A stretch of 64,000 bases of DNA from Podarcis gaigeae (Eukaryota): NCBI GenBank assembly GCA_964106915.2, contig OZ066918.1, one strand, 5' to 3'. Below are positions 612-63,845 of this stretch, piece after piece. The notes below the pieces were generated by a model, which was not told the DNA's origin, did no database searches, and saw only the letters and a list, made by a program, of their open reading frames with translations. Position 1 is the stretch's first letter, and each line of letters opens with the position of its first letter. A program made the position numbers and the translations under genes.

Positions 612-650
<39 letters not shown>

Positions 651-6337: not shown

Positions 6338-6855
6338 TATGCTAAGTTACTTTTTAAAAGCAACTTCCTAACCTGAAGGTTCGTGGACAATATGCTGGTG
6401 AAATCTCAGTTGAATAAGATTGTGTGGGGCTAAGCAAAAAGATCTGAGGTAAGGAATTTTGGCCCAAGGTGTTTGGGAGGAGTGTGGCAGCGGGGGCGGG
6501 GATATTGTTTGTAAACTTAAAAGGGGTTTATTGGGGTTGGGAAGAAAAAAAACCCACCCACGAGTTTCTTGGGTAACAGGAAATAACTTTATTCTGTCAT
6601 GCAATGACAACAGGCCACAATTGTATACCCCTCCCTCACAGTCTTTCTGAGCAGGGACGAAACTAGGCTCTATTTCACCTGGGTCAAAGACCCAGTTTGG
6701 CACCCTTTCATGTGCATTTGCACACACACAGAGGCTGGAGGTGTCACATGGGGCAAGAAACCTGGCTAGCCCCCCCCCCCCTGCCCAGTAGCTATGAAAC
6801 TGCTGAGACGGCATTATGGGGTTATTGTTCTGAGATGGTCTGCTACTAGGAGGAA

Positions 6856-8090
6856 TTGTGTGGCAAGGTCCCAAACCCTCCCAGGAGGTGGAATAAAGAC
6901 ACATGAAACAGTATTTTAGATTAATGGGCAAAAAAGGCCACAACTTTATTGGTTACAGAATGTGAGTGGTATTGGCTTAGGCTTTGGAAACCACACGACT
7001 ATATCTGACTCCTGCCCATCTGCAGGAGTCTTGGAAGGGTTAACCACCAGTAGGGGGAGCCCTGCTGATGCACATCAACTAGGAACTCCCCCAGGGTCAC
7101 CTCTAGGGGTCGTGCCATGGCCCTGGTCTGGGGCTTCAGCTGGAGACCACATCCCCCGGATTCCTTTAACGGAATACACTTGAATTAGGAGGGGTAGGTG
7201 ATAGCCACTACCTCCCCTCCCCTTCTTCTTCTTTTAAATATTTTTTATTGCTCAATTTCCACATAACAAATTATCAAACCATATAATCACCTACATAATT
7301 TCCCCCCTCCCCCCCAAGGACTTCCCTCAGCTCCTCTCCCAGATTTCGCTGCACATATTTTCTCTGCATATTATAAAACTGTATATGTCTTTACATATCT
7401 ATCCATCATGTTATCAACAATAAATTTGTGTATGTTTAGTCAAAACCTGCCAAGGAGTCCAGTTCATTTTGTTGTGTTTTTAAATAATTTGTGTAAATTC
7501 CTCCTTGAAGTCACAGTTGTCTCGCAGTTTCTATGTCAATTTAGCCAGTTCTGCGTAGTTCATCAATTTCTCTTGCCCCCAAGCTCTTTCTGCCTGAACC
7601 GTGTCATCCCTTAAGCGGACGACACGGAGCTCACCGCCATTAGCCTCTGCAGCGAACCGGAAGTCCTACCTCCTCCCTCCCTTTCAACCTAATACTCCAA
7701 TGCCTAACCGCCTAACCTTACAAAGTTGTGACAATTTACTACGAGGCAGGCGGAAAAACCCAACAGCCAATTTGCCAAGTGGAAAAATTCCTACCAGGCC
7801 CCTTGGACAACCAAGGTGACCAACCGAGGTCCATAGCAAGGTCAAGAAATAAAAGAGCCTAACTTAAGGGAGGGAGGGCGGGAGAACTGACCGAGAAGGG
7901 AGATAAACAGGGGCGAGTCCTCAGCCACGGGCAGTTTAAATAGCCCGTGCCACACCCCTGGACTGACTGAATTGGACGGCCTAAGGATGACGTGGCCGAG
8001 GAACATCCAATGGCGCAGGGGTGATCCTGCCCTGCATGTGTGGGGAAGGCTTGCTCCCAGCGCCCACGTCATCTCCCCGGAAATGGGAAA
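6856..8090 (-). mobile_element. Non-coding terminal-repeat remnant of a DIRS/Ngaro-like element, interrupted by L1
   Basis: Shares ggccacaactttatt, ggattcctttaacggaat, ccaatgcctaaccgc, aaaattcctaccaggcccc and catagcaaggtcaa with 51098-51880. Ends ..ccacacaa, like ..ccacgcaa of the SGNH-bearing copy. Right boundary approximate. Confidence 0.6.
7223..7666 (-). mobile_element. Internally deleted L1: about 90 nt 5' end fused to about 350 nt 3' end
   Basis: Minus strand starts GGACTTCCGG..ATGGCGG. The 3' part matches the L1 3' end at 63.0-63.35 kb. Imperfect TSD tacctcc(t)ccctccc on both sides. Confidence 0.65.
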
Positions 8091-9532
8091 TGGCTTTCCT
8101 GCACCAATTAAAGTAGCAAACCAAAGTTTGAAGTCTAAAAGAAGAAAGATAAAGTCCTTGCCACTACTGCTACCCAGTAAGTCTCCCTGAAATTTGTGAA
8201 TAAATCCCCTGCCCCCAAGGAGCTGGGTGGCAAATTTGTGGGGAAGATTTTTACTGTGCGCTGAGCTTTTGGAGGTTTAGGTGAGGTACCTCCACATTCC
8301 CATCAGCTGTAGGGCTGGAATAAATCGTGCAAAACTGTATCCACTGCAGAATGATTTTTGCAGTGTGTAGTTCTGCTGGATTTGCATGATTTATGGAGAT
8401 TGCAGGGTCCAGCTTTGCAGAGTGCAGGGTTACGCCAGTGATTAAGCTTGATTATTTTATATTAGCATCAAGGACACCTGACCCTGTGCTTTACCCAGTA
8501 CTGAGCATTCCCCCCCCCCCCCCGCCTTCCTTAAGAGCTGGTTTATTTCCTTAACTCTGGCAACATGAGGGAGCGATGCCAGCTTTCCCCCCAGGAGAGA
8601 TGGTTGGAATCCACTTGTCAGTGGCACTCGCTTATCTTTAAGATTTCTGCCTTGGGACCTTACTTTGCCAAGCGACTCTTGGAAGCTCAAGCAAATCCAA
8701 ACAAGAACTAAAAATAATGCATCACCAGGGACGCATTAGTATCTGAGCGCCACGCTTCATTCCCTCTGAGGAATCATTGGGGATTTAAATGATCAGTGCT
8801 GCATGGTCACAAGTGGCTGGAACTTTAATACTTGAGATAAATGGCTCCCCAGTTCTAGTGAGGATCTTGCTTAGTGAATGATGCGCCTCCTTCAGCAGTC
8901 CAATGGAATGAAACAAAATTGGACTAATATATACAACAGAGAGGGTCTGATAAGTGCCTTGGTTAACTCTGATTCTGGTGCTAATGAGATTGGTTCCAGG
9001 CTTTCCATGATACCTTTTACTTGCTTCGTAAACACTGAAGGCAGCAATGCAACTGCAACATAGCTGCTGCTTCGATCCTTTCCATGTTGGAAACAATGTC
9101 GGCTTGTTTTTGAAAGGGAATCCTTGGCTTTTCCATTCAGATAAGTGGGATGTCGCTGCAATCTTAAATACAGCTACCTGGATACTGCTCTTTGAACACA
9201 CTGGAAGTCATTCTGCGTAGATGTGTATAAGGTTGTGCTGTTGCATCTTTAACTTCAGCTGGATGTAAGTTTTACAGGACTAAAGAAACAGGGATAGCTG
9301 AAAATACATTTTTTCCATTAATTTTTTTTATAAAACAAACATACCATATCTCATGGATCACAGCAAAACATGGGAATTTATTACAATTTTTGTCCACTTA
9401 GAAAATTATGTCTATCTGTGTGTGTTTCTTGCAGTGAGACCAGGGCTGCTTTTTCCAGCCGGAAGTTGCCGGAACTTAGTTCCGGCACCTCTTAGATGGG
9501 TGCCATTGCCTTTATAAGAGAGCAAGGGGGTA

Positions 9533-29524: not shown

Positions 29525-29845
29525 TTTTTTTTCTTCTTTTAAATAATTTTATTAAGAATTTCAACATAACAAATTATCAAAACATATCATCTTCATTGTT
29601 CCCCTCCCTCTTTTCCCCTCCCTCCACCCCAGGAAGAACCCCCAAGTCTTCCCTCAGTTCCTCTCTCTGATTTTTCAACACATGTTATTCTCTGCATATT
29701 GTAAAATTGTAAAGATCCTCAATTTCTCTGTCTATTATGGTAACAATCAACAAATTTGTGTATGTTTATTCAAAACCTGCCAAGGAGTCCAATTCATTTT
29801 GTTGTCTTTTTAAGTAGTTTGTAAAAATTTCCCATTCTTTTTTTT
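29525..29845 (-). mobile_element. L1 3' end fragment
   Basis: Similar to 62987-63270 and 7223-7500. Confidence 0.75.
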
Positions 29846-30827: not shown

Positions 30828-31190
30828 TAAAGCCCTTTAAAGCCCTAAATGTCTTTGGCCCAGTATACCTGAAGGAGCGTCTCCACCCCCATTGTTCAGC
30901 CCAGACACTGAGCTCCAGCGCCTAGGGCCTTCTGGCGGTTCCTTCACTGCAAGAAGTGAGGTTACAGCGAACCAGGCAGAGGGGCTTCTTGGCAGTGGCG
31001 CCCGCCCTGTGGAACGCCCTCCCACCAGTTGTCAAGGAAATAAACAACTATCTGACTTTTAGAAGACATCTGAAGACAGCCCTGTTTAGGGAAGTTTTTG
31101 ATGTTTGATGTTTTATAGTGTTTTTAATATTATGTTGGGAGCTGCCCAGTGCGGCTGGGGTATAAATGGGTGGGGTATAAATATATTATT
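30828..31190 (+). mobile_element. L2 3' fragment
   Basis: FKALN..GPVYLKERLHPH and L2 3' UTR. Confidence 0.88.
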
Positions 31191-31821
31191 ATATATTTTA
31201 TGCAACTCCTTTCCAGTTGGGATCAGACAAGGCCTCCCTCCCTATTGAACCTCTGGCACCTACCAAAGAATTTGTTATTTCAGTAGGCTTCTAGACCGAA
31301 TTCTGATTTTATAGTTTTACCCAAGTTTTATCGTTTTGTACTGAGTGGTATTGTAAGGTATTGTATACCCCTTAGAGACTATTATAATTAAGCAGTATAC
31401 CCATTTTCACAACAAACAAACAAACAAACAAATAAAGATACTGGCTTTTTAACCCCCAAACTTCCTCTCTAGGTCACATCAAAATCCAAGCATATGGAAA
31501 GAATTCTTGACACCCCACTCCAAAAAACAAAACAAAAAAACAACCCCTAACATGCCTGCCATCCTCAGCCCCCAAACATATAACTTCCTTATTTTCCCAA
31601 ATTGTTTACATTTGTAGCAGAATATTCTTTCAGGAACTCTTACAATTGCAATGGACATTGCCCAGCAGCAACCTAGACGAGAACTTAGAAGTGCAGGGTA
31701 GCAGTGCTGCTCTTCAAAGAGTCATTGGGCTGAGCCCAACAACCAGGTCACCCCAAATCTGGGTCTCTGAAACCTGGTCTCTCAGAGACTACAAGCCCCT
31801 TCCCCAGGGATTCTTATTCTA

Positions 31822-32973
31822 TGTAGCTGGATGTCAGGAAGTAGCAAGGCTCTGAAAAGTGTGTGACAGAGGCAGAAGACAAGGGGAGTGACCAAGGAGA
31901 GGTGACCAGTGATTGATGGGGTGTGATGCCATCTTCAAGGCAGGTGCCAGGGTTGGATGGAGAGTCAGGGCAGTCTGAGATGAAGGAGGGCATGCAGGAT
32001 GTGGCGGAGGAAGAAGTGATGTTTCAGGAGAGGAACGGGTTGGTAGATTCCCCACTTTCCCCTGCTCCACTGTTGCCTAGAACCCAGAGGGGCTTGAAAA
32101 GGGAAGCGCCGTGATAACTTCAGTGCAGGAGAGGTCTCAGGTTCTGGGCACGCAACCTATCAGAGGTATACAGTGGTACCTCGGGTTAAGAACTTAATTC
32201 ATTCTGGAGGTCCGTTCTTAACCTGAAACTGTTCTTTTAAAAAAATATATATTATTGAGTTTTCATATTTAATTACATCTCATTACACAAATCTATAACA
32301 TAAAGCATTGCTCAGGCAGAGCATAGACTTCCTTCCCTCCCACTTTCTGACTTCCAGACATCTTTTACTAAATTCTCACATTTCTATAACCACTTTTTTA
32401 CCTTAAGACTTCTTTTTTTTAATAAAAAAATACCTCCTTATGTGTAAATCAGTTCCTTATTTTCGCATTTCAATTCAAACCTACAAACGTTTTCAAATGT
32501 TTACAATTTTCTTTCATATAAAATATAAATTTGCTCCAGTCCTTTTGAAACAGTTCATCTTGCCGATTCCGGATCTGAAACTGTTCTTAACCTGAGGTAC
32601 CACTTTAGCTAAAGGGGCCTCCCACTGCCACCACACGATTTCTGTTCTCATCCTGAAGCAAAGTTCTTAACCCAAGGTACTATTTCTGGGTTAGCAGAGT
32701 CTGTAACCTGAAGCGTCTGTAACCTGAAGCTTCTGTAACCCAAAGTACCACTGTATAAAGAGGGAAAGGGGTCCCAGTTGCTGCAACTGCTCCATATGGC
32801 CCAGACTGCTCAGAGGCTAGAAGCATGTGAATGTGTGTATCTGGAGCACCTTGGGAGCTGCTGCAAGTGTTTCTCTTGCCAATAAAGGGTTAACTATCTG
32901 ATGTGTGGCTTACCTTATCTGGGATTGGCTGTGACACTGGCTTGCCAACAAAGGCAGGATACTTGTCCTGACA
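31822..32973 (+). mobile_element. Solo LTR with acidic/basic U3 frame; nested MITE and L1
   Basis: TG..CA termini; perfect 5-bp TSD ttcta (31817-21 / 32974-78); AATAAA at 32881; frame EEEVMFQ..SPLSPAPLLPRTQRGLKRE. Confidence 0.75.
32171..32753. mobile_element. Tigger-like MITE (TA TSD) containing an L1 3' fragment (about 32236-32575)
   Basis: CAGTGGTACC..GTACCACTG flanked by TA; same family as 9533-9758. Confidence 0.8.
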
Positions 32974-33206: not shown

Positions 33207-34330
33207 TTTGTATGCCTGTTGTCTTTGTCCATGGAGTTTTCTTGGCAGGGATACTGGAGTGGCTTGCCGGTTCCTCCTCCAGGTGGATCATGTTTGGTCA
33301 AGACTCTCCACTATGACCTGTCCATCTTGGGTGCCCTGCTCAGCATAGTTCATAGCTTCTCTGAGTTATTCAAGCCCCTTCGCCACGGCAAGGCAGTGAT
33401 CCATGAAGGGGTTCAAAATTGGGAAAGGAGTACGACAAGGCTCCTATTGTCTCCCTGCTTATTTATATGCAGAATTCATCATGCGAAAGGCTGGACTGGA
33501 TGAATCCCTAGCCAGAATTAAGATTGCCGGAAGAAATATCAACAACCTCAGATATGCAGATGACACAACCTTGATGGCAGAAAGTGGGGAGCAATTAAAG
33601 AACTTTTTAATGAGGGTGAAAGAGGAGAGCGCAAAATATGGTTTGAAGCTCAACATCAAAAAAATGAAGATCATGGCCACTGGTCCCATCACCTCCTGGC
33701 AAATAGAAGGGGAAGAAATGGAGGCAGTGAGAGATTTTACTTTCTTGGGCTCCATGATCACTGCAGATGGTGACAGCAGCCACAAAATTAAAAGATGCCT
33801 GCTTCTTGGGAGAAAAGCAATGACAAACCTAGACAGCATCTTAAAAAGCTGAAACATCACCCTGCCAACAAATGTCCGTATAGTTAAAGCTATGGTTTTC
33901 CCAGTAGTGATGTATGGAAGTGAGAGCTGGACCATAAAGAAGGCTGATCGCCGAAGAACTGATGCTTTTGAATTATGGTGCTGGAGGAGACTCTTGAGAG
34001 TCCCATGGACTGCAAGAAGATCAGACCTATCCATGCTTAAGGAAATCAGCCTTGAGTGCTCACTGGAAGGACAGATCATGAAGCTGAGGCTCCAGTACTT
34101 AGGCCACCTCATGAGAAGATAAGACTCCCTGGAAAAGACCCTGATGTTGGGAAAGATGGAGGGCACAAGGAGAAGGGGGTGACAGAGGACGAAATGGTTG
34201 GATAGTGTTCTCGAAGCTACCAGCATGAGTTTGACCAAACTGCGGGAGGCAGTGGAAGACAGGAGTGCCTGGCGTGCTCTGGTCCATGGGGTCACGAAGA
34301 GTCGGACACGACTAAACAACAACAACAACA
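33207..34330 (+). mobile_element. BovB (RTE-clade) LINE with inverted 5' end; 11-bp TSD
   Basis: RT motif NNLRYADDTTLMAES and (CAA)n tail. 33207-33410 is BovB-like 5' UTR on the minus strand. TSD aagtgatagct at 33196-33206 and 34331-34341. Confidence 0.9.
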
Positions 34331-36387
34331 AAGTGATAGCTGTTCTCCCTGCTAGCACTCTGATGCAAAATCAGAGAGGACAAAGACTGCAAGTAGCATG
34401 GGAAATGTCATTAGGTGTCCTGCCAAAGGACTGAGCAGAATTTTGACTCGGTACAGATCTAAAGCCAAATCTGTGGCATTTCCTTTGAAATTCGCACATA
34501 ACCGAATTTTGTGAGGCCATTCTTCAACCAAACAACATTTACAAAAATGCTTGTATTGGAGTGGGATGGGGTGTGCGTAAAGATAGAGATATTAGTGAAA
34601 ATAGCACACCAAAATACAGTATATTAGGAGAAATTGCTTATCTATGTTTATTAGAGAAATTGCATTATCTGTGTTTATTTGCACTAAAACACTGGTTACT
34701 TTTCATTATGATTGGTTTCTTTTTATTGCAAATTGCTGTAAAATGTGGAAAACTGAATTTAAGATTGTGTGGGGAGGGACAAGCAACAGGGAGAGTTGAA
34801 ACTGACAGATCCTTCCATCCCTAGTCCCGTCACACACAAGTGGCACAACTGCATTATCAGATCAGCATCCTCTATGCTTATTGTTTTAAAAATGCAAACG
34901 GCACCATTGTTCTAGGGAAAACAAACATGACAAAATATTGAAGCATTTGTCAAGCAGAGCAGCAATCTGAACACATATTTCTTCAGAATCGTTGGGTTTT
35001 ATTTTATTTATTTTGTATTTTTTTTATCATTTTGCAACCTGAGAGGAATACTAAAGATGGCGCATGCTGCATTTCCCTCCTACCACTTAATCTTGAACAA
35101 ATATAACAACTCTTCTGATAGAGGTGGCCAAGGGGCTAAGCCACAGTGGCAAGCCCCATCATGATGATGTATTCATAGTTCACAGAGTGCTAAGTCGTTG
35201 CATTTGGCTCTACAGCCTGCAATTACACACATTGCAAGCACCAGAAATCCCCCCTTCCCCCTTCACAGTTATTTCAGGCCCTTAAAAGGAAGCTCTGGCA
35301 TTCTTTGTGTAGCGAATGACATTAACTTATGTTTCTAACTTGCCTTATTAACCTTTTCTAAGACACAGGCTGGGAAATGCCGGGGAGAAATGCTACCCTA
35401 TTTTGGCATAAACCCATCTGGGAAACCGGTTCTCAGGGTCTAAGGAAAACTCTAAGCAGCAGAAGGTGTGTATGTTACTTCAGATATGTGAAGTGGAACA
35501 TCGGTTTGCTCAGATGTCCAGTTAAATGATCCAATTTATCAATGGCTATTGTCCATCTCTGCTGCCTAAGGGCTTTTTTGGGAGGTGGGGTTCTCCAGAA
35601 ACACACTCCATTTGGGACTTTTATTTCCACAAACAAGCACACTTACTAGGGAAAGGTCCCCACAGAGCACAGTCAGATTTACTTATGAGTAAATGTTCCC
35701 TAGTTGGAGGCAGTGGCGTGCTCTGGTCCATGGGGTCACGAAGAGACGGACACGACTAAACAACAACAAACAACAAAAAATGTTCCCTGGTTTTGTTCCA
35801 GCCCACAGCCATCTCTGGGTGGGTTTGAACCACTGACCTTCTGATTAACAGCTAGACGTGCCAACCCACTGCACCATAGGAGATTGTGGCTTCCTTAGGT
35901 TCGCCAATGGGATGGCAAGCAAACTTGTCTTAAAGGTGAGGCCCGATTCTAGGAGCTGGGCGCTTACCTAAAAGATAGAGATATGCTCATGTTGTTGCCT
36001 CATGGCCCAAAGGCACTGGAAAAGTCAAGCCTGCACACGCTCCAGACCCCAAGCTTTTGTCTAGGATGGGTGCCGGGCTGAAGCTTGTGTGAACAGAGGA
36101 TGAAAGAAAACCCAGTGTTTGCTGCACATTGCTGGCGTAGTCTCTGTTTGTTGTAAGTGTTTAAGCTATCTTGATATAAGTGCCCCAGGGCATAAGCTTC
36201 TCAGAACTGACAGGCAGACACGACATCCCCTCTTGTCCCAATGTTGAAATGCAATGCCATTCTTAGGGGTGGCACAGGAGATGCCACTGATGCCAGTCTA
36301 TGCCAGGGCTGGCCTGCTGTGCATGGCTCAAAGTGAGAACTATGCAGCTACGGAAAGGAAATTAATATAAATTGTTGCAATATTTGT

Positions 36388-36610: not shown

Positions 36611-37052
36611 GTTTTCCCAGTAGTGATGTATGGAAGGGAGAGCTGGACCATAAAGAAGGCTGATTGATAGCCGAAGAATTGATGCTTTTAAATTATGGTG
36701 CTGGAGGAGACTCTTGAAAGTCCCATGGACTGCAAGAAGATCAAACCTATCCATTCTGAAGGAAATCAGCCCTGAGTGCTCACTGGAAGGGCAGATCCTG
36801 AAGCTGAGGCTCCAATACTTTGGCCACCTCATGAGAAGATAAGACTCCCTGGAAAAGACCCTGATGTTGGGAAAGATGGAGGGCACAAGGAGAAGGGGAC
36901 GACAGAGGACGAGATGGTTGGATAGTGTTCTCGAAGCTACCAGCATGAGTTTGACCAAACTGTGGGAGGCTATGGAAGACAGGAGTGCCTGGCGTGCTCT
37001 GGTCCATGGGGTCACAAAGAGTCGGACACGACTAAACGACTAAACAACAACT
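36611..37052 (+). mobile_element. BovB 3' fragment
   Basis: VFPVVMYG.ESWTIKKAD..; near-identical to 33895-34330. Confidence 0.9.
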
Positions 37053-39104
37053 ACAACACTTCTAGACTCTGTTACCAAGATCTATGGGCTCCAACCCTGG
37101 GTGCAGGGCTCTAAGATTTTATCACTGGGCAGATAGACCCCATCCTTTAACCTAGACAAGTTCCAATGCCTGATCCTTTGAGGGTATTGCCCATAGAGAT
37201 CTGCCCAGCTATAGAGCCGGCCCAATACATTTTGGCACCTGAGCAGACTCCAAAATGGCAAGCCCCCTCTGCACCAGGGAAGAAGGGTGATGGAAGATCT
37301 ACATCAGGAACAAGGAAGGAAGGAAGATCGACATCAGGTTCTGCTGCTCCTATGGATCCTGCCACCTGAGGCAGTCACTTCCCCTTGTCTTATGGGTGGG
37401 CCGGACCTGCCCAGGTGTCAGAATGTTGTCTTCCAACCCTCTTCCATGTGTAACAGTTCACCAATGATTGTAGCTTTGGTAGCTCAATCTCACATTGCCA
37501 GCGTCCACAGCATAGTTCCTTCCTATACTGGCTTTGTCTTAGCATCTGAGACGAGAGATACCATCACAAGAAGGAGTCATCTCACCTACAAGATTGGGCA
37601 TCTGAAGCTACCTGAGTGGCTGCAGCAGCCTACTTTTACACAATGAGCTAAAAATCAGAAAGGGCTCTCTGGTTAAAAAGAAGCCCCATTTTGTCTGTGC
37701 CACCTGCCAGTTACAGACATTCAGACTGTGTCTACAAAACAGGAAGCCAATTAATTTAATTACCCAGTCTTCCGACCTCAGTGGGCTCCACAATGCAGCT
37801 TGCGACAATAACAAAAAGATTAAATCTGAAAGAATCTAAATTAAAAGCCCCTACCAAAAAAATAAAAAATAAAAATCTATGTAACGTTTTTCTAACAAGA
37901 ACTAAAACTATTGCAGAAGACAGAGCATCCTTTCATTTTTTAATCACACCAATTGACTGGTGGATCTGTTCCCCAGGGCTCAAGCACAAGTATGAATAAG
38001 CCCTTAGAGAGAGAAAGTCTTTACCTTTCTTCTGGCTCAGGTGTCAATAACAGCCACCTGCAACTAACTGCTTACAGAGACAGGACAATGTATTAGAAGG
38101 TGAACCACTGTCCTGACCCAATATGGTTGCTGTTTGGTTTTCATGAATATACTTTGTCATTTCCTTTTGTTCTGAAGCTAAATTAAGGCTTGGGTTTGGG
38201 GTTTTTCCCCCTCCCCCAAGCACTGTGCAATTCACAAATGGGGTGTGCTCTGAGCACTAAGGGCAACTCATTATTTTCCAACTTATTTTTGTAATATACT
38301 GGCTGCAGTCTGGGGGAAAGCTGTGTCAAGATATCTGCAATACAAAGCCTATTCTGTTTGCGAGCGATTTTCCTCTTGCCTTATTCATGAGCTAAGGATG
38401 CAATGGCATGACCCGGCATGTCAATCAAACTTCAAATTGAGATTTCTGGGGCTATCATAGCAAGGTTAAATGGCACTGTATACAAAAATATCCCACTAAT
38501 GAAACGACAAGTCAGACAGGGTTACTACAAGCAAATAGTTTGCTGCAGAAGAGAAAGAAAGCAAAACAAAACACCACCCACAATATGGAAAGCATGCAGT
38601 GTTATTATGATGGAGGCCAAAGGGAGCCTTTCATTCAAAGTTTTCTTTTCTTTCTTTTCTCGGCCAAGTTTCTTCCCTTTTCAGGAAATTCGATGGCCAC
38701 TCAATGGTGATTTAATATTTCTTAATTATGTGCATCACATGAAAGGTGGTGCCCCTCTTCTCTGATTGTTTACAAGGGTGATTTTGTGTGAGACAGTCTA
38801 AGGAAAAGTGAGATGTGACTAAGACTGTGATTATGGAGGCATAGTCCTGGCACAGACCTCACAGGTAAAGCAGTAGATGTCTGCCTCTCCATCTCTTTCT
38901 TCTGCCATTGGGACCATTCGCCACAGCAGCACCAGGAGTGGCAGCAAACCCCCCTGGTGGACTGGGGAGAGCTCCCTGCAGAACAACTGTCGCCCCCCCT
39001 CACCCGGAATCCCTTTTTGCTAAAAATCTGCATTTTAGGGGAGCAGAGCTTAAGCTACATGGCTGCCATTGTTTGCCACCATTGACAGCACCTGATCGAC
39101 AGCC

Positions 39105-39257: not shown

Positions 39258-39707
39258 CGACAGCATGCAGTTTAATTCAATCCACATTTAAAGCACACTT
39301 CTTCTTTTTTTAAAAAAATCATTTTTATTTGATTTTACAAATATAAAATTATAACAATCCAAATACGTCTGCTGAAGAGGCTCCTCATGAGGCCGGAGGA
39401 ACATACAATTTTTTGCTGAGTTATTGGTTTAATATGCTGTAAACCGCTTTAAGATCTTTATTAAAAATATAAAGCGGTATAGAAATTAAACAAAATAAAA
39501 TAAAAACATATCTATATATTGAGATTACAGTGGTACCTCTGGTTGTGAACGGGATCCGTTCCGGAGGCCCGTTCACAACATGAAAACAACGCAAGCACAG
39601 CGGTGCATCTGTGCATGTGCGGGTTGCGATTCACCGTTTCTGTGCATGCACGTGATGTCATCTTGCACGTCTGCGCATGCGTGAGCGGTGAAACCCAGAA
39701 GTAACCC

Positions 39708-46367: not shown

Positions 46368-46620
46368 AGCCAGTGTGGTGTAGTCGTTAAGAGAGGTAGT
46401 CTCGTAATCTGGGGAACCGGGTTCGCGTCTCCGCTCCTCCACATGCAGCTGCTGGGTGACCTTGGGCCAGTCACACTTCTCTGAAGTCTCTCAGCCCCAC
46501 TCACCTCACAGAGTTTTGTTGTGGGGGAGGAAGGGAAAGGAGAATGTTAGCCACTTTGAGACTCCTTAAAGGGAGTGATAAAGCGGGATATCAAATCCAA
46601 ACTCCTCTTCTTCTTCTTCA
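46368..46620 (+). mobile_element. Squam3-like tRNA SINE
   Basis: Highly similar to 22086-22330. Confidence 0.85.
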
Positions 46621-49600
46621 TTCATGGCTCCCCTCCGAACTGAAACGTGAACAGCAGCAGCAGCCTTTGGCACTCAGGTTCGTGTGGCATAAATGGGTAC
46701 CGGCAGCCATGGTAAAGTGGTGGGAATGTGCAATGGCCCATTGACAGATGAAGGATCAAAAACCAGGAGGTCATCCATGGTTGGGCAGGCGAGCAGGGTG
46801 ATGGTGGAATCAAAGTAGGGCAAGACTAGATGAAGATCAGGAATGAGGACATCTGGTGGAGACAAGAGGATGAATATGCAATCAAATAGGGGTGGAGAAC
46901 TAGATTCTGTTGGACACAAACTCCATAAACACTGTAGATTTTACCAGTCCTTAATGTTTCAACAATGACCCAGTGTGTCAAGTCTTGTTTAAAGGAATGA
47001 ACCAAATTAATTAATATGGAGAATTAAATGCTATTTAGCCTTGCTTGTATCCCTGCCGACTTGCCAATTTGTCTGCCTCTGATGTAATTACCTTTCATTT
47101 ATGTCTCTAATCCTACAAACCTGTCTCTTGCCCCTTCCCACCACCTTTGATTCAATCAGGCCACCACACAGAAGTTCCACATCAAAGCCAGACGTGGAGA
47201 GGGAAACGATGCTCTCCGAGCTGCTGATCAGGGAATCAAGTTTACCCAAGTTACATCTCACAGAAAAGCTTGGGGAAGTGTGAAAGCAGAGGTTGCAGTA
47301 TCAAGCCAGGGAGCAAAATGAAAGTGAAGTAGTTCTCCTCACATGAACGGTATGATGGACCAATATCCTGGGCTCCCGGTATGCTGGGCGGAGGCTGGGA
47401 TGAACACAGGCAAAGATCGCCCCCTTGCTCATCCCAGCCCCCACTTGGCTCCTGGTCCTGAGCTGCTGGATGGAGGCTGGGGCACACAGAGGGTGCCTGG
47501 TGGTGGGAGGTGGCAGCCCCCTCAATATTGGGGGGCTGAAGTCCCTTCTGTCCCTATATTCAGCACCCCTGATTTCCAGCCCTCTAACTACTGAGAGAAT
47601 TCCTTAACCATTTTCACATCCACGTGACTCAGGAAGGTAACCCATAGTACCTTTATGTTCTAACTAAGGTGGAGAATGCAATGAGCCATGCTTGCTTTTT
47701 CATCTCAGGAGGAGAGACACAAAATATATCTCCTCTCCCAAGGGAGTCATGGAGCAGAAAGGAGATGAGGTCAGGTCAGCAACACTAAGAATATCAGCCT
47801 AACCCTGAAAAAAGATCAATAGGTCACTCCAGGGAGGACAGTGTAAGATGCTTGGATATTCCTTTCTGTTGACGCTTCCCATGCAGGTGTATCTGTCTCC
47901 AGTGCAAGTTGAGTTGCATCCTAGCACTTCCAAGGTAAACTTCACATTGGAGAGGGAGGGAAAACTTTACAATCCCGGTGGTGGAAGGAGGAAGACCAGG
48001 CAAGAGACACTAAGGTAGGCCGCCACCTTCCTGGGATGTGACTATTGGGTCACTACATTTTACTTAAAGTGGCATTTCAATATGCACTATATCCTGCCCT
48101 GCCCTTTATTCAGTTCACCTAAGGACATGTTCCTCTATTCATTTGAGAATTTTCAAGAAGGTCAATCAGATGATTTCAAAGTTAGATGGTTGCTGGCTGA
48201 TGTAGACATTTGTTACCTACAGAATAACTTTACATGTGTTAGCTGTGAGAAACTTGCAGACTACTTTTTGGACCCAGAACTGTGTCAACTGCTGAGGGGA
48301 TTTTAAAAAATCTAAATCAGGGATGAGGAACCTCAGGCCCAGGGTCTGAATGCAGTCATCCAGATCTCTCTGCCTGGCCTTTGGCATTCTTCCCAGGCCA
48401 TCCCCTCCACTGGACCTCCTTTGTGTCCTTCTTGAGTGCTTTTGCCTGGGTACAATGTGTCCTTGAATCCTGAACATCAGTGGAGGCTGGTGTCCCTTGG
48501 GACTAGTAGGCAGAAGGCAAGGAGACCAACAGTAGCTGGAACCAGAGTCAATGACCGGTGGAGCCAATTAATTCTAGTTTCGTCTCCACTCTCCTCCATG
48601 CCGAGGTCTCCAAAGACAACACTGAAAGGGAGGAAGCAGGCAACCAGTGCAACTCAAAATCACACCTGCTGGACTGGTTGTAAGTAAGGAAGCAAACAAA
48701 CAAACAAACAAACAAACAAACAAACAAACACTTGCCCTATTGGACCAGGCTCAACTGCAGTCATGCTTCTTGTTTCGCTGGATGAAAGATAGAGAGGGGT
48801 GTGTGACTATATTAACAGTTGTTCTCCACCCACTTTTATTTCTGGCCATGCCCAATATTGGCATATATCCCCAGGAAGAAGACTATGCAGGCCACAAGCT
48901 GCTAACTCTTTCCTACTAAATGATTTGGGGGAATTTCCAGCTTTAAATTTGGGGAATTTCCAGTTCTGAAAATAAGGGTGTTTAACTTTTTCTCGGGTTG
49001 TCCTGTTCGTCTTTTTGCGATTCGTATTGCAATGCCCATTGATGACGAACAATAAAAATCTGACTGACTGACATTTCAAGGGAAATCGAAGGTTTTTTGC
49101 TTCAGCAAAACATACACAGGATATTGACTTTCTAGAAGCGAAATTTCTTAGTGAGCTTTGCCCATTCCTGGGACTACTAACAAGTGTGCTTCTTTGATCT
49201 CAATTCCTCTGAGGGAGCACAGGAGCAGACTGCTCTGGAAGGGCATATTTATGTATTGGTTTTATTCCTGCAAGGCACTTCCTTGTCTGCATCCAAGCAC
49301 AAACATTTTGTGGGGCTGAGGAAAGCATGCGACTAGATCCTGGGAAAGGTAAGATCCTGGGAAAGGTTGTTGTTCAGGTAGTTTGATAGGGAGCCAGTCA
49401 AAATTCCAAGCCAGGTTGGTTATTCTGCTGTGGTTCATAACTCTGTCCTGGTAAAGGGTATCACTCATTCATAAATGCTGCCGCAGGAAGTCCATTGGTG
49501 ACTTGCTTAAGCAATCCTGCATCTGGAGGAAAAAATAACATGAGAATTAGCTCTAGGAACACAACATCTCACACTATGGAGCCCTGTAGAGATAGTGCAT

Positions 49601-49622
49601 TCCCCTTCTATAGTATTCAAAG

Positions 49623-50426
49623 GTCTTTTGAAAGGCGATTGCAGACCTGGAAAGCCTACATGCCACTTACCCCAATATCACGATTTTCTGTTCAGAACTT
49701 CTGCCACGCTTACAATGGCGTGGCAACATCAAACCCACCAGACTTAATTACACTGTTGAAACAGTCAATAGGGCAGTGCGCTCTGCAACCACACACATGG
49801 GAGGTCGGGTCGTGAAACACCCCAACTTTAAAGTTTACATGAAGGAGCTATTTAGGCCCGATGCTGTGCACTTATCGGACCTCGGTAACGAGCGTTGGCT
49901 GAGCGACATCAGGCATAGCCTGATGACTGGTTGGAGGATGGTGAAGGGGCTTTTCAGATGTATGTAGTCTTCGTGGCGAGACTGCAATCTTTGCGGTCTC
50001 GGGTGGCGGTATCAGGCCTTGGGCGGAATCCTTTAGTCTATCTTCCTCTTTGCAGTGGCGATACCAGGGTTCCCCGTTAAAGGGGTTTCTGAAGGGAGGC
50101 TTTGACCGTACGCCGAAAGGTCGTCATTGCTCTCCCCTGCGGCGGCAGCGTAACGGGGGCGGCTATCTCTGCTTGAACATATGTTCTCCAGAGCTGTCCC
50201 ATCCCCCACACACACACACACTGGATAAGCCTGATGCTCCCTAGGTCCCCGGCTGGGGACTGGGGAGGGAAAACGCCCAATGCCTGAGTCAAGGTCTACC
50301 CACATTTGAAATTTAATAAAGTTGTGGCCAATAAAGTTGTGCCATAGCACGTTGTCTTGAGTTGTTATTCCACATGACGGGGGGGGGGGACCGCTCGGGA
50401 TCTGGGGACTCCGCCTGTCCACGCAA
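49623..50426 (+). mobile_element. 3' end of a DIRS/Ngaro-type tyrosine-recombinase retrotransposon
   Basis: SGNH-hydrolase remnant followed by a CpG-rich terminal region with aataaagttgtggcc, ending ..ccacgcaa. Confidence 0.7.
49632..49967 (+). pseudogene. SGNH/GDSL hydrolase C-terminal remnant (retroelement-borne)
   Basis: Open frame KAIADLESLHATYPNITIFCSELLPRLQWRG..VNRAVRSATTHMGGRVVKHP..LFRPDAVHLSDLGNERWL, containing the D-x-x-H block V motif. Confidence 0.72.
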
Positions 50427-50721
50427 TTAGCTCTAGGAACACAACATCTCACACTATGGAGCCCTGTAGAGATAGTGCATTCCCCTTCTATAGTATTCAA
50501 AGCCAAGCTAGAAGCAAAAGCAGCTGCATATATCTGTAGCACAGCCAGATGTTGCAGGGGGGGTGCTCCCTGCATCAAGGAAGTTTATACAAAATAAGCA
50601 CATTTGCACATATCTCTAGACTGTATGTTGAGCAGAGAACTTGAGCTTCCCAAGCACAGAAGGTTGATTCCACAGCTGCAAGATTTGTACTGTGGATGTC
50701 TTTTGCATGTGCAGACTATGA

Positions 50722-50990
50722 GTCAGGCAGAGGGCCTTCTCGGTGGTGGCAACCACCCTGTGGAATGCCCTCCCACCAGATGTCAAGGAAATAAACAACT
50801 ACCTGACTTTTATAAGACATCTGAAGGCAGTCCTGTTTAGGGAAGTTTTTTTTAATGTTTGAAGTTTTATTTTAGTTTATATTTTGTTGGGAGCCACCCA
50901 GAGAGTCTGGGAAAAAACAGCCAGATGGGCGGGCTATAAATAATAACAAATTATTATTATTATTATTAGTAGTAGTAGTAGTAGTATTCA
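50722..50990 (+). mobile_element. L2 3' fragment
   Basis: aggcagagggccttctcggtggtgg..ccagatgtcaaggaaataaacaactac; (ATT)/(AGT) tail. Confidence 0.85.
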
Positions 50991-51097
50991 ATTTTGTGTG
51001 CAACCTTGGTTGTGTTTTTACTCTGGTAATTTCCCAAGTGCTGTGATAGTTTTTTCTAGTGATGGTGTTACAAGGACAACTTTTCAAGATCCTCTGA

Positions 51098-51880
51098 TTG
51101 CATGTCAAGGTCCCCAAGCCACCCCCCAAATAACTCACAACGCACACTTGATTTTTGTTTAAGGTTTTTGGCATAATTTTGGCCACAACTTTATTTAAAT
51201 ACAAAACCGTGAGTGATTGTTTAGGCATTGGTTAAGACTATCTGTCCCCCCACCTGGGGACAGAACTGACTTCCGGGCACCACCGAAAGACAGTGCGGGG
51301 GAAAGCAAGTCGGGGAGAAATGGAGCTGAGTCTCATCCGCATGCTCCCCGAAGGCTTGCCGGCCCTGGTCCCATTCCAGGGATTGGACAAAAAGATGGCA
51401 AGCCCCAGGATTCCTTTAACGGAATTCCCTTTCCGCAGCAACCATGGAGGGGCAGGCCCAGCCTATCCTAACCCCTCTTCCACCAATTTATAACCAATGC
51501 CTAACCGCAACCTTACAAGTTGTGACGATTTGCTACGCAGTAGGCAAAAACCAAATGGCCCAGCCAATCAGCCAATTTGACAAAATTCCTACCAGGCCCC
51601 TGCCCCAACGGCAGACGACCCCATGACAGGCATAGCAAGGTCAATGCAACAACCCCTTACTCAAGGGCGGGTGGGCGGGTGATCCGTGGCACGCAGCAAA
51701 GAGAAAGCTCCAGGCTGTGTGCAGAGTATTTAAACATTTTACCCCTCCCACCAAAATTGCAACATAACTTTTACCCCAGCAACCCAGTGAACCAATCACT
51801 GCCCCAGGCCATCTTTAGAGACCCTGCCTGGTAACAGAGGGGTGGCTCAGCAGACCCCACCGCAACACGTGCTCTCCATG
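51098..51880 (-). mobile_element. Non-coding terminal-repeat remnant of a DIRS/Ngaro-like element
   Basis: Shares conserved blocks with 6856-8090; minus-strand end ..acatgcaa; right boundary approximate. Confidence 0.6.
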
Positions 51881-52519
51881 AAGGAGAACACGCTTTCCAA
51901 GAGACCAGTGTAGGCAACAGTCCACAAAGAGGACTTGCCACCATGGATTTTTGAGCAGGACTAGACATCCAGTGGTTCTGAGAACTGTGGTTACCACTAA
52001 GTAGCCACAAAGCATTACTGGACAGATGCTTGAACTTTTTCCACTACCCCTTCCACTTTTCCCCACAACACAGACAAACACATCTGGGGAAAGCAGCCAA
52101 GAGAGGGGTTGCAGAGGTATAGATAGAGAATAGCATATACAGTATAATGTTTGCTACCACCATTTGGTACACATGTGAAGTACATTAATGAAACAATAAT
52201 ATGTTATCTTTATCTTTGGGAGGGGTGGGTCTTTAATGTCATTGTATGCTAGGATAAAATACAGAATTGTTTAGAGTCTATAAGAGGTCGTTTTCTTACT
52301 AGTCCATGGGTTTATCAGGATTGCAAGACTTTTAACTGGCAGATTAATCAACTTAAGCTTTAGTTGATTAATTAGTGGCTTTAACCAGAGATGACAAACT
52401 TCACAATGTGAAACTGAAAGTTAAGATCATACCTGTTTTTGTTTAGGGGGGAGAGAGAGAGAAAGAGTGCGCTTAGATTATTTTGGTTTTGATATGTTAG
52501 TTATTGTATTATAGAATGG

Positions 52520-54035: not shown

Positions 54036-54104
54036 AGAATCACGCAAAGGTGAGGTTTCACTCTGAGTTCTTATACCTGTCTTCTGTACACAAGTGTTTG
54101 TTTT

Positions 54105-54452
54105 GTTGTTGTGTTGTTCAGTCATTTAGTCGTGTCTGACTCTTCGTGACCCCATGAACCAGAGCATGCCAGGCACTCCTGTCTTCCACTGCCTCCCACA
54201 GTTTGGTCAAACTCATGCTGGTAGCTTCGAGAACACTGTCCAACCATCTCGTCCTCTGCCGTCCCCTTCTCCTTGTGCCCTCCATCTTTCCCAACATCAG
54301 GGTCTTTTCCAGGGAGTCTTATCTTCTCCTGAGGTGGCCAAAGTACTGGAGCCTCAGCTTCATGATCTGTCCTTCCAGTGAGCACTCAGGGTTGATTTCC
54401 TTCAGTATGGAGAGGTTTGATCTCCTTGCAGTCCATGGGACTCTCAAGAGTC
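54105..54452 (-). mobile_element. BovB 3' fragment
   Basis: Reverse complement of the BovB 3' end; (TTG)n tail. Confidence 0.9.
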
Positions 54453-54879
54453 TTCATCTGCTTTACCCACGGATAAACACAACAAAAATACACCTGCCAT
54501 ACGTCCCGACATAAAGTGAATGCAGCATGATGTTGGACTGGAAACATTTAACAGCGTTCCCATTTGCTCTATGCAGCAACTATGCAGGTGGCAGGGTGCA
54601 CACCCAATTTTTTCCCATATGTCTATGTCTGTCCCTTCCATTTACTGGGCCCTCACTGCATTTCCGCTGCTATCCAAAATGCATCTGTGTCCCATATACC
54701 CCATTATAAGAAACTACTGTTTGATGTGTTGTTTCTCAAACTGGTGTCACACCAGCTGGGGTCTTTAAGCCGTTCCCAATTCTTCTCTTGCCATGGTGAG
54801 AGCACATCTTTGCCCAGAGTAATGACATCTCTGCCCCATCCATGGGTGTGTACACAAACAGTAAGGAATTGAAGCCACG

Positions 54880-58511: not shown

Positions 58512-61500
58512 TGCATCAGATTTGGACATATCACAAATTCTAAAGCTACCATGAATAAATTCAGGGTTGAAGCATGGACCTTTGCTGCATTTCAGGGTTG
58601 AAGCATGGACCTTTTCAGGGCACTTTGGATCTGCTTCAGAGCAGATTCAGGGCATATTCGGGTGGTAAAAAGATGCAGGCATTGTGTCTGAAAATAACTA
58701 AAACACTTATCCCCATATCAGGTAACTGCCAGTGTGGTGAGATCAAGGAGGGAGAGCTCTTCTGCGATTGACAGGTCTGACTTTTAATCAGAGGGGATGC
58801 TTATTACAAGGGATCTCCAATCACAGTGCTTTAGGGAAGTGAAGTTGAAGTGATGCATCACCTCCTCCTAGCCTGTTCTTGGTTCTTTGCTGTTTCTGCT
58901 AGTGGAGACTGCTTGGAAAACGCAATAGCTCAAGTCCTTCTGTCTCTGCCACATGCCCACACATCCACTCCCTGTCAAATCAGCTGTGCATTTACGTTTC
59001 TGTGACTTTGGGTAGCAGTTGAGCAGAATACATGTTTGTTTTTAAAGCATTCATCATCACCTAAAAGCCATCCACCCATTCTTCTTAATTTTTGCAGCTT
59101 ATTTTCCTGTTGGACATCTTAATGATAGGCGTCATTTTGGTAATAAAGTTATTGACCACAAAATCGTCGGGAGGAAAGGAAAACCCTTTAAATCCTCCAC
59201 TACAAAATAAAATTTAAAGGAGGCTTGCCACAGAAGACCTGTGCACACATTTGTCCTCAGTTTGGCAGGTTTCTTACCCAGGGATACCTCTCTCTCGTTT
59301 GCTGTTTTCATACAAATTGCCCACAAAACAAGAGGTAAGAATAAGTGAATCTTTTTGTGTTTTTATCTAGGATTTTTTTTGTGATCCACCCTGAGATCTG
59401 TGGATGAAGGGTGATTTATAAATTTTATGAATATGTAAATAAGCAAAAGTTGTAAAAGTTGGTGGGTGTTTTTGTTTAGGAAATACACTGTATCTGTCCT
59501 TCTGAAATCTGCCAGGATCAAATCCCTTTAAAAGGATCTGACATGTCTGCAAATTTCATGCAATCCTGCAAATAAATTATTAGTGCAAAACCCTCAGACC
59601 TATATTTCTGCAATTTAGCAGGCATGAAGCCTCATTTCTTCTGAATCAAGATTCAGACCCTGAGGAAACTTTGTCGGCACCAAATAATGCTCTTTTCCAA
59701 AGCGCTGATTCCAGACACCATCCCTTTTAATTCCTGTCAGTTCTTGGGTATGGGGTAAGACTGGGGCCTGGTTTGCTATTTAAGGGCTCACCTCTGAACA
59801 CTGTCAAAGTAGCTCCTGCCCTGCTTGGATCTCTTCCTGCAAAAGCTTGCTGTCTAGATCCAGCTCCCTGGAACCCACTGTTTCCCAGTTCCTTCTGAAA
59901 TTTGTCAGATGACTCCAGCTTCAGCCAAGCTAGCTTAAAACTTACTTAGTGCTCCCCAAGTGATGCACCAGCTAGTACAATACAAGTGTTTGGCATGCCA
60001 ATGTAAACTTGTAATCACATCTCTGTTTAGATTAGGGCACCTGTACTGGGTGTAGCTTGAACAGGGACAAACATGCCAGAAATTGTCAGTAACTAAAATG
60101 ACATTTAATTATACGATGTTTCTTTTCTGGTATTGAAAAAGTAAACATGTTTTCAAAACACTGAATAAAAAGCCAGATAGTAAGCCAAGGGGAGTAGCAT
60201 TGTTGCAGCTTCTGACTGGCTCTATGCCTGCAGCCTAAGACAGAAAAGCGCATTCATCTACAGAACAATGTTGTGGGATTTGAAGGAAGTTGGAGACATC
60301 ACATAACCACCAGCAGCAGCGAGCAAGAAGGGGTGAGTTTCTCAGAAGGAGCAGTCTGGGCACTGATAAGCTAGCAGCAGTGCCCTTCGGTTACAACACA
60401 TAATGTGCTAATGCATGTCAGTTGTTGTCACTGTGCACTATGATGTCATCCATCTCAGCAGTTATGACACAAACAGTGAAGTCACCCCACATTCCGAGAG
60501 ACAGAGGATAAGGTTACCAGCTCTGGCCTTTGACAGTGACAATGGGAAGTAACGGAGAAGTGGACAACTAGTAAAGGATCTAAACAGGAGAAAAGATTTG
60601 AGGTAAAAGCGGAAGGGAAAATGTTGTGAGAGTGAGTCGTACTGTTTCAATGTGGTGTAATCAATGGAAATGTGGAGGGATATGAAAATTGTTCTGTGCA
60701 TTTGTAGTAATGGCAGTGAAGAAGAGTTTCCAAGACAATGTCTGATGTTTCTGTGCTCTTGAACCAGATTTGCACCAGAGTCTCCAGTAGTTAATGGGAA
60801 TTATTTGTGATTTTGCTTGGCTACAGTGTTTTTGTGTAACTATCCACCCATACGGAGTACCACCACCTCTCTTTTTTTCCTGCTACCTATGGAATACATT
60901 TTGTGCTGGCAGCCATAGCACTTCTATCAAAATATGAGTATTGGCATATCATTTTTAACACACACCCCCGAGTGTGGATGGCTGTACTGGGTTTCAGTAC
61001 ATATTTATTTTAAAATATTTCTAGGTTACGTTTCCTAAGTTATGGTTAATTTTAATACGCTTTAACATTCTATTATATTGTTTTGGAGGTTGGGTTTTAT
61101 TGTCCTTTGGCTTGCTTTCTTGAAAATTCAGTTTTCCCAGTGAAATTTTCAGACATTTTCTGCTTTACAATAATTTTATGTGAGGGACTTTCTTGTGTGC
61201 TTCCAACCTGAAAGCAGCTTTGAATGATTAAAAAAAAAAATGGAGGGTGAGGCAGGAAGTGGGAGGGATTCCACTTCCTGTTTTGCACTTCCTATATAAT
61301 TCCCAAAGTGAAATGTTTGTACCTCATTCAACAGAAAACCTGAGAAACAGAAACAGCTTATATTTCTCACCAGAGGGTTAGGAGATTTATGATATCCAGG
61401 GTTAGGAGATTTATGATATCTAATATCCAGTAAAGGATATTAGAGCATCAATGTAGGAAGAGGAAGTCCAAGCCATTCATCGGTTTCTCTTGGTTTTCTA

Positions 61501-61530
61501 TAATGTCTGAAGGCTTACATATCTTCAGAT

Positions 61531-61821
61531 AATTATATCCTTCATACTAATCGGCTGATGATTTGCCCGCCCAGACGCCAATACCGCAGCCCTTCAAGCC
61601 ATTATTTTTAACCGCGTAGGAGACATTGGACTAATACTAGCCCTTGCCTGACTAGCAATACACTTAGCAACCTGAAACATTCAAGAAATAACAATTGAAA
61701 CTAAAACCCCTCCCCTACTACCTCTCTTCGGCCTTATTCTTGCCTCCGCAGGTAAATCCGCACAATTCGGACTCCACCCCTGACTCCCAGCTGCAATAGA
61801 AGGTCCAACACCTGTTTCAGC
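61531..61821 (+). pseudogene. ND5: NUMT: internal fragment of mitochondrial ND5
   Basis: In the vertebrate mitochondrial code reads [56 protein letters not shown] with no stops or indels. Confidence 0.96.
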
Positions 61822-62461
61822 GGGGGAGAAGTTTTCAGGGTCGCCTAGTAGGTTAGGTATAAAAAGAGCAAGTAGTAGGAGAAGAGTAAAGATTAATATA
61901 GCACCCAGTAAGTCTTTATATGAATAATATGGGTGGAATGGAATTTTGTCTGTGTTGGAATTTAAGCCTGTTGGGTTGTTTGATCCTGTCTCATGTAAGA
62001 AGAGTAGGTGTACTATTGAGGTTCCTATAATAAGAAAAGGTAATAGGAAATGGAAGGTAAAGAATCGAGTTAGGGTTGCGTTGTCTACTGCAAAGCCGCC
62101 TCAGATTCACTCGACGAGGGAGGTGCCGATGTAGGGAATTGCGGAAAGAAGATTAGTAATGACGGTGGCACCTCAAAATGATATTTGGCCTCAAGGGAGG
62201 ACATAGCCTATGAAGGCTGTGGCTATGACGAGAAGCAGGAGTAGGACTCCAATGTTTCAAGTTTCGGTAAATATATAAGAACCATAATATAAGCCTCGTC
62301 CAATGTGTAAATAAATGCAGACGAAGAACATAGAAGCACCGTTGGCGTGTAGGTTGCGAATAAGTCATCCGTATTGGACATCTCGATGAATGTGGGCAAC
62401 GGATGAAAAGGCGGAAGAAATGTCTGGGGTATAGTGTATGGCTAAAAAGAGGCCTGTGATG
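61819..62461 (-). pseudogene. CYTB: NUMT: internal fragment of mitochondrial cytochrome b (214 codons)
   Basis: [57 protein letters not shown], uninterrupted in the mitochondrial code (TGA=Trp). Confidence 0.98.
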
Positions 62462-62986
62462 GATTGGCCCATATGCACCTGGGCCAATCCCTAAATTGGG
62501 CAGCGGGGGGGGGGGTTACACATGTACAGCAGGCTCCCCCACTTCTGACTGCATCCTCAAATGGACAAACAGGGGCATGGTTGGAGGGGACTAGGCCAGA
62601 GATTGTGACCCTGTTTTTCCTCTCACATGAGTCTAAGAGCATGAGAGATGAATGCCTGAAAAGGGCTCAAGTGTGATTAAGAAACTGAACCCAATAAGTG
62701 CTCTGCAAATAGCTTCAGACTAGAATTACAGGGTATACTCAGTGGTCAGGATTCCAAGGGGGTAGGGTTACTAGGGAGCAGAGAATATGTTTAACCACCA
62801 ACACACTGATGTCTGAGTGTGCCTCTTTACTTTCTATTCTACATATGTGGCTCCCTTTATTTTCTGCTATATAATAATGTCCTTCACTCTGCTGGGAGAA
62901 CTTGTGTGTTGTACTTCAGAATAAAGCAGAAGCAAAATGTGCCCTCCATGCCAACAGTGGGTGGTTGGGCCTTACTGGCAATGTCT

Positions 62987-63845
62987 TTTTTTTAAAAAAA
63001 ATGTTTTTATTAACAATTTCAACATAACAGATTATCAAAACATATCATATTCATTATTCCCCCTTTCCCCCCACCCCCTTCAAACCTCCCCTCCCCCCGA
63101 GACTTCCCTCAGCTCCTCTCTCTGATTTTCTCAGAACATATTATTCTCTGCATGTTGTAAAATTATACATATCCTTGCAGTATCTATCTACAATGTTATC
63201 AACTAGTAAATTTGTGTATGTTTATTCAAAACCTGTTGTCTTTTAGATAAGTTGTAAAAAGCTCCCACTCTTCCTTAAAGTCACAGTTGTCCTTATCCCG
63301 CAATTTGTATGTCAATTTAGCCAGCTCTGCGTAGCTCATCAATTTTTCTTGCCACTGTTCTTTCGTTGGGGTTTCCTCATTCTTCCATCCTTGTGCTATC
63401 AAGACTCTTGCCGCTGTTGTAGCATACATAAATAAGTTCTTTGTTTTTCTTAGCAGGTCTTGTCCTACAATCCCTAACAGAAATGCTTCTGGGTGTTTTT
63501 TTTACAAAAGTCATTTTAAACATTTTTTCAATTCATTATATATCATTTCCCAAATTTTTTTAACTTCTCTACATTCCCACCACATCTGATAAAAAGTCCC
63601 TTCTTTTTCTTTACATTTCCAACATGTGTTTGACCCAGTTTTGTACATTTTTGCTATCTGTACTGGTGTAATATACCATCTATACATCATTTTCATAAAA
63701 TTTTCTTTCAAAAGAGAACAACCTGTAAATTTCAAATTTATTTTCCACAATTTTTTCCAGTCCTCAAATTGTATATTATGTCCTATATACTGTGCCCATT
63801 TGATTATGACCAATTTGACCTCCTCATCTTTTGTGTCCCATTCTA
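62987..63845 (-). mobile_element. L1-clade LINE 3' fragment (ORF2 C-terminus)
   Basis: Cys-rich CWKCKEKEGTFYQMWWEC and ARVLIAQGWK..YAELAKLT; A-rich tail near 62990. Confidence 0.85.

Follow-up and report, generated by a model that had tools for sequence, protein, structure and literature searches.

A truncated Ngaro-type retroelement end between perfect 78-bp duplications in Podarcis gaigeae: a possible half-finished recombinase insertion

The 64,000-nucleotide window analysed here, taken from contig OZ066918.1 of the Podarcis gaigeae assembly GCA_964106915.2, holds an 802-bp CpG-rich insert flanked by two identical 78-bp copies of host-like sequence. Judged by its sequence, this insert comes from a Ngaro-type tyrosine recombinase (YR) retroelement, of which it forms the 3' end; it is classed as a fragment derived from a Ngaro-like element and not as a complete member because it lacks split repeats, reverse transcriptase (RT) and YR. 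The class of element is already known; the new part is the long duplication on a truncated Ngaro end. The reading that we favour, tentatively and at a probability of about 0.4, is a recent, half-canonical insertion in which a partial cDNA of a decayed Ngaro-type element would have been joined at an AAT trinucleotide by YR, its left end being repaired by the host. The features of the locus and of two related elements in the window, called X and Y, are as follows (a slash marks a junction; ORF, open reading frame).

49545..49622, + strand: left 78-bp copy, found by exact repeat search; begins AAT; 41% GC, CpG-free, host-like
49623..49634, + strand: 12 nt at the left junction whose origin is uncertain (filler or frameshifted element sequence)
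49635..49960, + strand: decayed ORF for the C-terminal half of a Ngaro-type SGNH hydrolase; the frame breaks near 49922, and the catalytic blocks of the N-terminal part are missing
49961..50424, + strand: 3' non-coding terminal unit, B-like, single copy; CCGTTAAAGG at 50074, AATAAA at 50315 and 50330
50420..50427, + strand: terminal junction CACGC/AAT, in which AAT both closes the element and opens the right copy
50425..50502, + strand: right 78-bp copy, found by exact repeat search
51097..51700, - strand: comparator Y, a non-coding relative (solo A-B-like or internally deleted) ending CATGC/AAT; its left end may reach about 51900
6855..8100, - strand: comparator X, a non-coding relative ending CACAC/AAT, interrupted by another repeat at about 7220-7655

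The direct repeat at 49545-49622 and 50425-50502 is the longest among the exact repeats of at least 24 nt in the window, occurs at one locus only within it, and ends sharply, identity past its two ends being 4/20 and 5/20, so that no mismatch-tolerant extension is found. The intervening 802 bp (49623-50424) have an observed/expected CpG ratio of 0.67 against 0.28 for the window, the 78-mer contains no CpG at all, and the limits of the CpG-rich stretch coincide with the repeat boundaries. An earlier, sequence-only reading had described such a bracketed insert and the lack of a poly(A): the exact repeat and the CpG ratio agree on the former, and no A-tail was found at the 3' end of the insert. 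Its assignment of the 78-mer to the host holds within the window, where the repeat is confined to this locus and resembles neither the insert nor X and Y above the level of shuffled sequences. No internal repeat of at least 14 nt was found within the insert, which has one B-like end, so the split repeats of the order A1-ORFs-B1-A2-B2 are absent. Its two AATAAA signals sit in a short tandem duplication with a GT-rich stretch downstream. Separately, a perfect short tandem duplication with a period of 17 bp lies at 49335-49367, about 180 bp left of the insertion.

The coding content of the insert is half of an SGNH hydrolase. The open frame at 49632-49967 has 111 codons, is preceded by an in-frame stop within the insert, and proves to be a chimera of two frames: homology to P0206, a Podarcis lilfordi hypothetical protein that is the closest relative among the matches listed (81% identical to the insert peptide), begins at 49635, and the C-terminal residues lie in another frame at about 49925-49960. 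The long open frame noted from the sequence is thus not one frame. Pfam assigns the peptide only weakly to PF13472 (GDSL_2; E=0.0065, 17.4 bits, under the 32.9 cut-off), and its homologues back the SGNH identity proposed earlier. A search of 1.84 billion representatives returned 478 homologues, and among the best 150 of these 478 block V is present in 114 (as DGVHL in 100) and block I in 52, in most of them as GHS..W (44 of the 52) and otherwise as GDS (8); the recombinase motif HSFRI lies upstream of SGNH in 4 of the same 150 gene models. PF13472 was found at E<=0.01 in 15 of 30 homologues scanned, over the cut-off in 6, and accompanied by weak phage-integrase matches in 1. A midpoint-rooted FastTree phylogeny of 242 sequences, from which 4 short matches had been left out, pairs the insert peptide with P0206 (0.95); the two fall in a clade of 148 members (support 0.85) that holds 3 of the 4 YR-linked proteins. 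Homologues and the upstream recombinase motif in relatives together bear out a Ngaro-type YR element with an SGNH ORF.

The Xenopus Ngaro-like elements DIRS-53_XT and DIRS-54_XT carry a fourth, SGNH ORF in last position, followed by a terminal repeat region, as in the insert (PMC9210276; here and below, sources given by PMC number are represented by excerpts), in agreement with the earlier statement that some Ngaro elements carry a hydrolase ORF. In contrast to them, the insert comprises only the last 802 bp of an element, with one B-like unit, no A2-B2, none of the gag, RT, RNase H (RH) and YR ORFs, and a 78-bp duplication. Searches for further relatives were negative within their scope: tblastn of the insert peptide found no second SGNH copy in the window, a word-indexed search of it against longer proteins gave 332 candidates with 0 significant, and P0206 as a query returned only itself and P0002 among 111 candidates, hence no second close relative. 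Rfam gave 0 matches on 49000-52200. Of the 77 long frames between stop codons, 30 were scanned with Pfam; cytochrome b and two RT fragments came up, but no nuclear gene of the host.

When the profile of the SGNH family was compared with solved structures, the best match was PDB 4C1B (E=2.5e-9), an ORF1 esterase of a long interspersed nuclear element (LINE) whose entry title is "ORF1-encoded protein" and which we take to be that of ZfL2-1. In 4C1B the esterase belongs to a 5' ORF and has a GDS block I, whereas the ORF of the insert comes last, before a non-coding terminal unit, and block I is absent from the fragment. Identity with a LINE ORF1 esterase of the L2/CR1 kind was considered and rejected, given that the ORF precedes a non-coding terminal unit and no endonuclease-RT ORF is present; the tree included no LINE ORF1 reference, which leaves that part of the case indirect. 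As an observation apart, the public gene models P0018, P0023, P0034 and P0064 carry the SGNH domain fused to domains of host proteins (CSDE1 with PRY-SPRY, kinase, VGLL4 and EF-hand); these fusions are probably annotation chimeras and possibly exonisation.

The right end of the insert had been read as the natural 3' end of the element, and the same end motif in X and Y bears this out. CCGTTAAAGG and AATAAAGTTGTGGCC are common to the insert, X and Y, the 3' alignments among the three outscore all 100 shuffles, and the 5' halves of X and Y are 80% identical over 209 nt. By their sequence X and Y would be solo A-B units or internal deletions of a Ngaro-related element; Y and the insert face each other tail to tail at a distance of only about 600 bp. 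The ends of X and Y define the pattern CAYRCAAT, which fits the insert end CACGC/AAT exactly at the start of the repeat and has 15 matches in 128,000 nt (both strands of the window), although the motif was spotted with all three ends in view and this is not a blind test. The distance from polyadenylation signal to end is 110 nt in the insert against 93 and 96 nt in X and Y. Polyadenylated mRNA normally stops some 20 nt past its signal. Because the insert retains 110 nt past its first AATAAA and 95 nt past its second, GT-rich stretch included, and has no tail, its donor was probably cDNA or DNA and not a polyadenylated 3' end.

The left junction can be read in two ways. All 4 of the codons formed in frame by the first 12 nt of the insert differ from P0206, and these 12 nt may be repair filler: 6 bp of them form an inverted repeat with the last bases of the 78-mer, a match that 3.2% of 9115 control positions also reach, and the first 8 nt recur at 50698 (reached in 2.9% of random draws). 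Equally, they may belong to the element, shifted in frame a second time, since another frame gives LLK where P0206 has LIK.

The insert and its flanks appear to differ in age. Insert and P0206 show 11 differences over 96 codons, which polarisation with 244 relatives divides into 5 derived in the window, 4 derived in P0206 and 2 ambiguous; the window-derived changes amount to 5 of 221 non-synonymous sites, about 2.3%. With its frameshift and these derived changes, the insert copy is by its sequence dead. Had the two 78-mers been of the same age, about 3.5 differences between them would be expected and 0 are seen (P=0.03; 0.12 with 3 derived changes and 0.014 with 6). Since the insert has decayed and the 78-mers are identical, the duplication looks younger than the decay of the element. 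Of the recent event proposed earlier, therefore, the duplication does look young, but the element sequence is not recent.

The favoured reading starts from a dead genomic copy that would have been transcribed and then reverse-transcribed in trans by the proteins of an active Ngaro element, with minus-strand cDNA synthesis halting inside the SGNH ORF. YR would then have exchanged a single strand between the junction at the B end and an AAT of the host, which would account for the canonical right junction. Such an exchange ties the 5' end of the cDNA to the host bottom strand, which matches the polarity seen. With no left end to complete recombination, host repair would have finished the left side, either after a second nick 78 nt downstream or after about 75 nt had been copied from the empty sister chromatid, followed by end-joining to the truncated cDNA end. 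The 78-mer would thus be a product of repair and not a normal target-site duplication. What is observed are products only (the last 802 bp, the terminal motif, the shared AAT and the 78-bp duplication), and every step of this scheme is reconstructed from them. We prefer a half-finished YR reaction because it uses the exact junction end, the dead donor and the young duplication together.

Several of its components have precedents. For DIRS-type YR elements, recombination is reported to take place at a trinucleotide, in most cases ATT/AAT, and to leave no duplication (PMC3266345, PMC7192593); the first of these sources accords with the point, made from the sequence, that YR elements do not typically show long duplications. 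Single-stranded linear cDNA and proteins acting in trans are described for DIRS-1 (PMC7192593), and for Cryptons there are accounts of YR-caused rearrangements whose breakpoint has one recombinase target (PMC9977147). Several points weigh against the half-finished reaction. There is one locus only, and the overlap at AAT is equally expected from 2-3 nt of microhomology in end-joining or primed reverse transcription. The trinucleotide rule is stated for DIRS1-like elements, no such statement for Ngaro being found in the excerpts, and those of PMC6681497, PMC3783388 and PMC12477816 hold nothing on Ngaro target sites; likewise, the literature excerpts contain no report of a retroelement YR carrying out a half-site reaction. 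Attempts to place the left ends of X and Y gave no position better than chance (upstream alignment score 28 against a shuffle maximum of 32), so that AAT at both ends of a canonical site is presumed. The filler signature is borderline, at about 3% for each of two looks, and the frameshift reading is as good. The age test, finally, depends on a single close relative, and its estimate could be inflated by differences between subfamilies or by base or assembly errors.

An unlikely alternative is that the assembly went wrong where an insertion was heterozygous, joining the left contig of the empty allele to the 3' piece of the filled one. In de Bruijn branching the left contig runs k-1 bases past the site, which forces an identical duplication and an apparent truncation, and 78 equals k-1 at k=79. 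An artefact of this kind predicts the canonical right junction, the perfect identity and the start at AAT, all of which are observed, and it dissolves the age mismatch between the insert and the 78-mers; it fits less well with the absence of any N across the 64 kb and with the lack of a comparable flanking repeat around 20 other repeat copies (the longest is 11 bp, a partial control with approximate boundaries), and a copy at about 2.3% decay would need its dead donor to be still polymorphic. Just as doubtful is a capture independent of the recombinase, in which a break with nicks 78 nt apart takes up a Ngaro cDNA fragment or genomic copy through end-joining at AAT microhomology. The donor would have to end exactly at the terminal motif of the family when any other AAT (2.1% of positions) would do. 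Chimeric mitochondrial insertions are usually ascribed to capture at breaks, and a chimeric, inverted one in the same window favours such a process here. The sequence-only reading had suggested break capture, with which the possible filler and the decayed donor are compatible, but which by itself leaves the join at the junction trinucleotide of the family unexplained.

Its other suggestion, trans-mobilisation by a LINE, is disfavoured by the 95-110 nt kept beyond AATAAA and by the missing target signatures. In this scheme, which we regard as rather improbable, a BovB/RTE, L1 or other LINE carries out target-primed reverse transcription internally primed on Ngaro RNA. An intact 3' end, a truncated 5' end and a flanking duplication are indeed LINE anatomy; the final CAA of the insert is similar to the (CAA)n tail of BovB in Podarcis, an element that makes duplications beginning with A (PMC13295347, a study that looked only at 10-49 bp duplications), tailless L1 products are known in the anole (PMC5322556), and duplications of 126 bp and of a median 900 bp occur in LINEs of other clades (PMC9977147). 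Yet the insert has no A-tail and a single CAA, not a repeated tail, L1 duplications are typically 12-18 bp (PMC11702581), and priming would have to hit the terminal motif by chance. The target reads AG/AATT, with G before the duplication and an A-run upstream, which is neither the Tn-TA of BovB (at 108/123 sites in a blindsnake; PMC13295347) nor the L1 consensus TT/AAAA (PMC5322556), whereas a short BovB-like copy at 35714 in the window does show Tn-TA. Quite improbable, too, is a history in two steps, where a canonical YR insertion at AAT suffered a later 5' break that was repaired by aborted copying from the empty homologue. The copying would delete the 5' part of the element, duplicate 75 nt of right flank, leave the right junction canonical and allow for filler at the left junction, and loss of the 5' or 3' repeat is common in Xenopus Ngaro copies (PMC9210276); decay in place, however, predicts that the haplotype flanks differ (about 3.5 differences expected, 0 seen between the 78-mers), and otherwise a dead donor plus two recent events are needed. 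Least of all do we credit that the 78-mer is the element's own A repeat, left by an internal deletion between A1 and B1 and by the loss of B2 after A2. The Ngaro order A1-ORFs-B1-A2-B2 does put a repeat after B (PMC9210276, PMC8547959), but the 78-mer is CpG-free in a CpG-rich element and unlike X, Y and the insert, two breaks at the same offset are required, and A1 and A2 should have aged along with the ORF.

Like DIRS1-like integrations at a trinucleotide (PMC3266345, PMC7192593), the insert joins at AAT at its right end, as do X and Y, whereas its left junction is not an element end and 78 bp are duplicated instead of 3. Like the insertions of R9 (126-bp duplications) and Dualen (median 900 bp; PMC9977147) and the tailless L1 retropseudogenes (PMC5322556), it combines 5' truncation, an intact 3' end, a long flanking duplication and no tail, but its passenger is a YR element ending at the recombination junction and it has no LINE target motif. 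Deletions of the 5' end spanning ORF1 are described in Cafeteria Ngaros (PMC8547959). Full-text literature searches, as far as the excerpts go, gave no report of 5'-truncated DIRS or Ngaro copies with long duplications, the original papers of Goodwin and Poulter and Repbase/Dfam lying outside their scope.

Other repeats and insertions populate the window. A mitochondrial chimera at 61514-62460 consists of about 215 open codons of cytochrome b (-) that meet head-on with about 103 codons of a membrane subunit of complex I (+), the latter matching PF00361 and presumably ND5; because both parts are open in the vertebrate mitochondrial code, the insertion is probably recent. A second perfect short tandem duplication, with a period of 24 bp, lies about 100 bp from it at 61374-61420. 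A LINE-like 3' fragment with an A-rich tail, which we take to be L1-like, occurs in three copies (7220-7655, 29528-29829 and 62986-63353), the first of which interrupts X. Four 3' ends, BovB-like by our assumption, lie at 33400-34332, 35714-35779, 36611-37058 and 54100-54453; they are 94% identical with (CAA)n tails, and an RT match falls at 33400-33849 in one of them. Another LINE fragment, at 612-1993 (-), ends in an (AAT)n tail and has a 419-codon open frame whose product includes an RT domain (E=2.4e-17); related 3' ends lie at 2660-3269, 30834-31201 and 50724-50988. Five copies with TACAGTGGTACC ends (9531-9761, 16381-16627, 28358-28551, 32169-32756 and 39526-39593) are presumably like miniature inverted-repeat transposable elements (MITEs), and a tRNA-derived pair at 22086-22333 and 46371-46620, 92% identical, is presumably related to short interspersed nuclear elements (SINEs). 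The short BovB-like copy at 35714 reads T/AAATG, with an 11-bp exact duplication and Ts about 10 bases upstream, the Tn-TA signature of PMC13295347.

Should the locus reflect one isolated accident of repair, or an error of assembly, it has little significance, and its interest rests on recurrence. That vertebrate Ngaro elements have a second, recurrent route, in which the recombinase joins the B end of an incomplete cDNA to AAT and the host repairs the other end, is unlikely at present. Such a route would leave behind 5'-truncated copies whose right ends are exact and whose target duplications are long and vary in length, fossils in the genome of the first step of strand exchange by a retroelement tyrosine recombinase. 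The half-site reading, if true, yields a cheap prediction for the whole genome, and long duplication together with 5' truncation would then not by itself be diagnostic of a LINE. YR retrotransposon integration is still largely a model drawn from junction sequences (PMC7192593). A copy with one canonical and one repaired end would, if the reading is true, fix the strand polarity and the order of steps.

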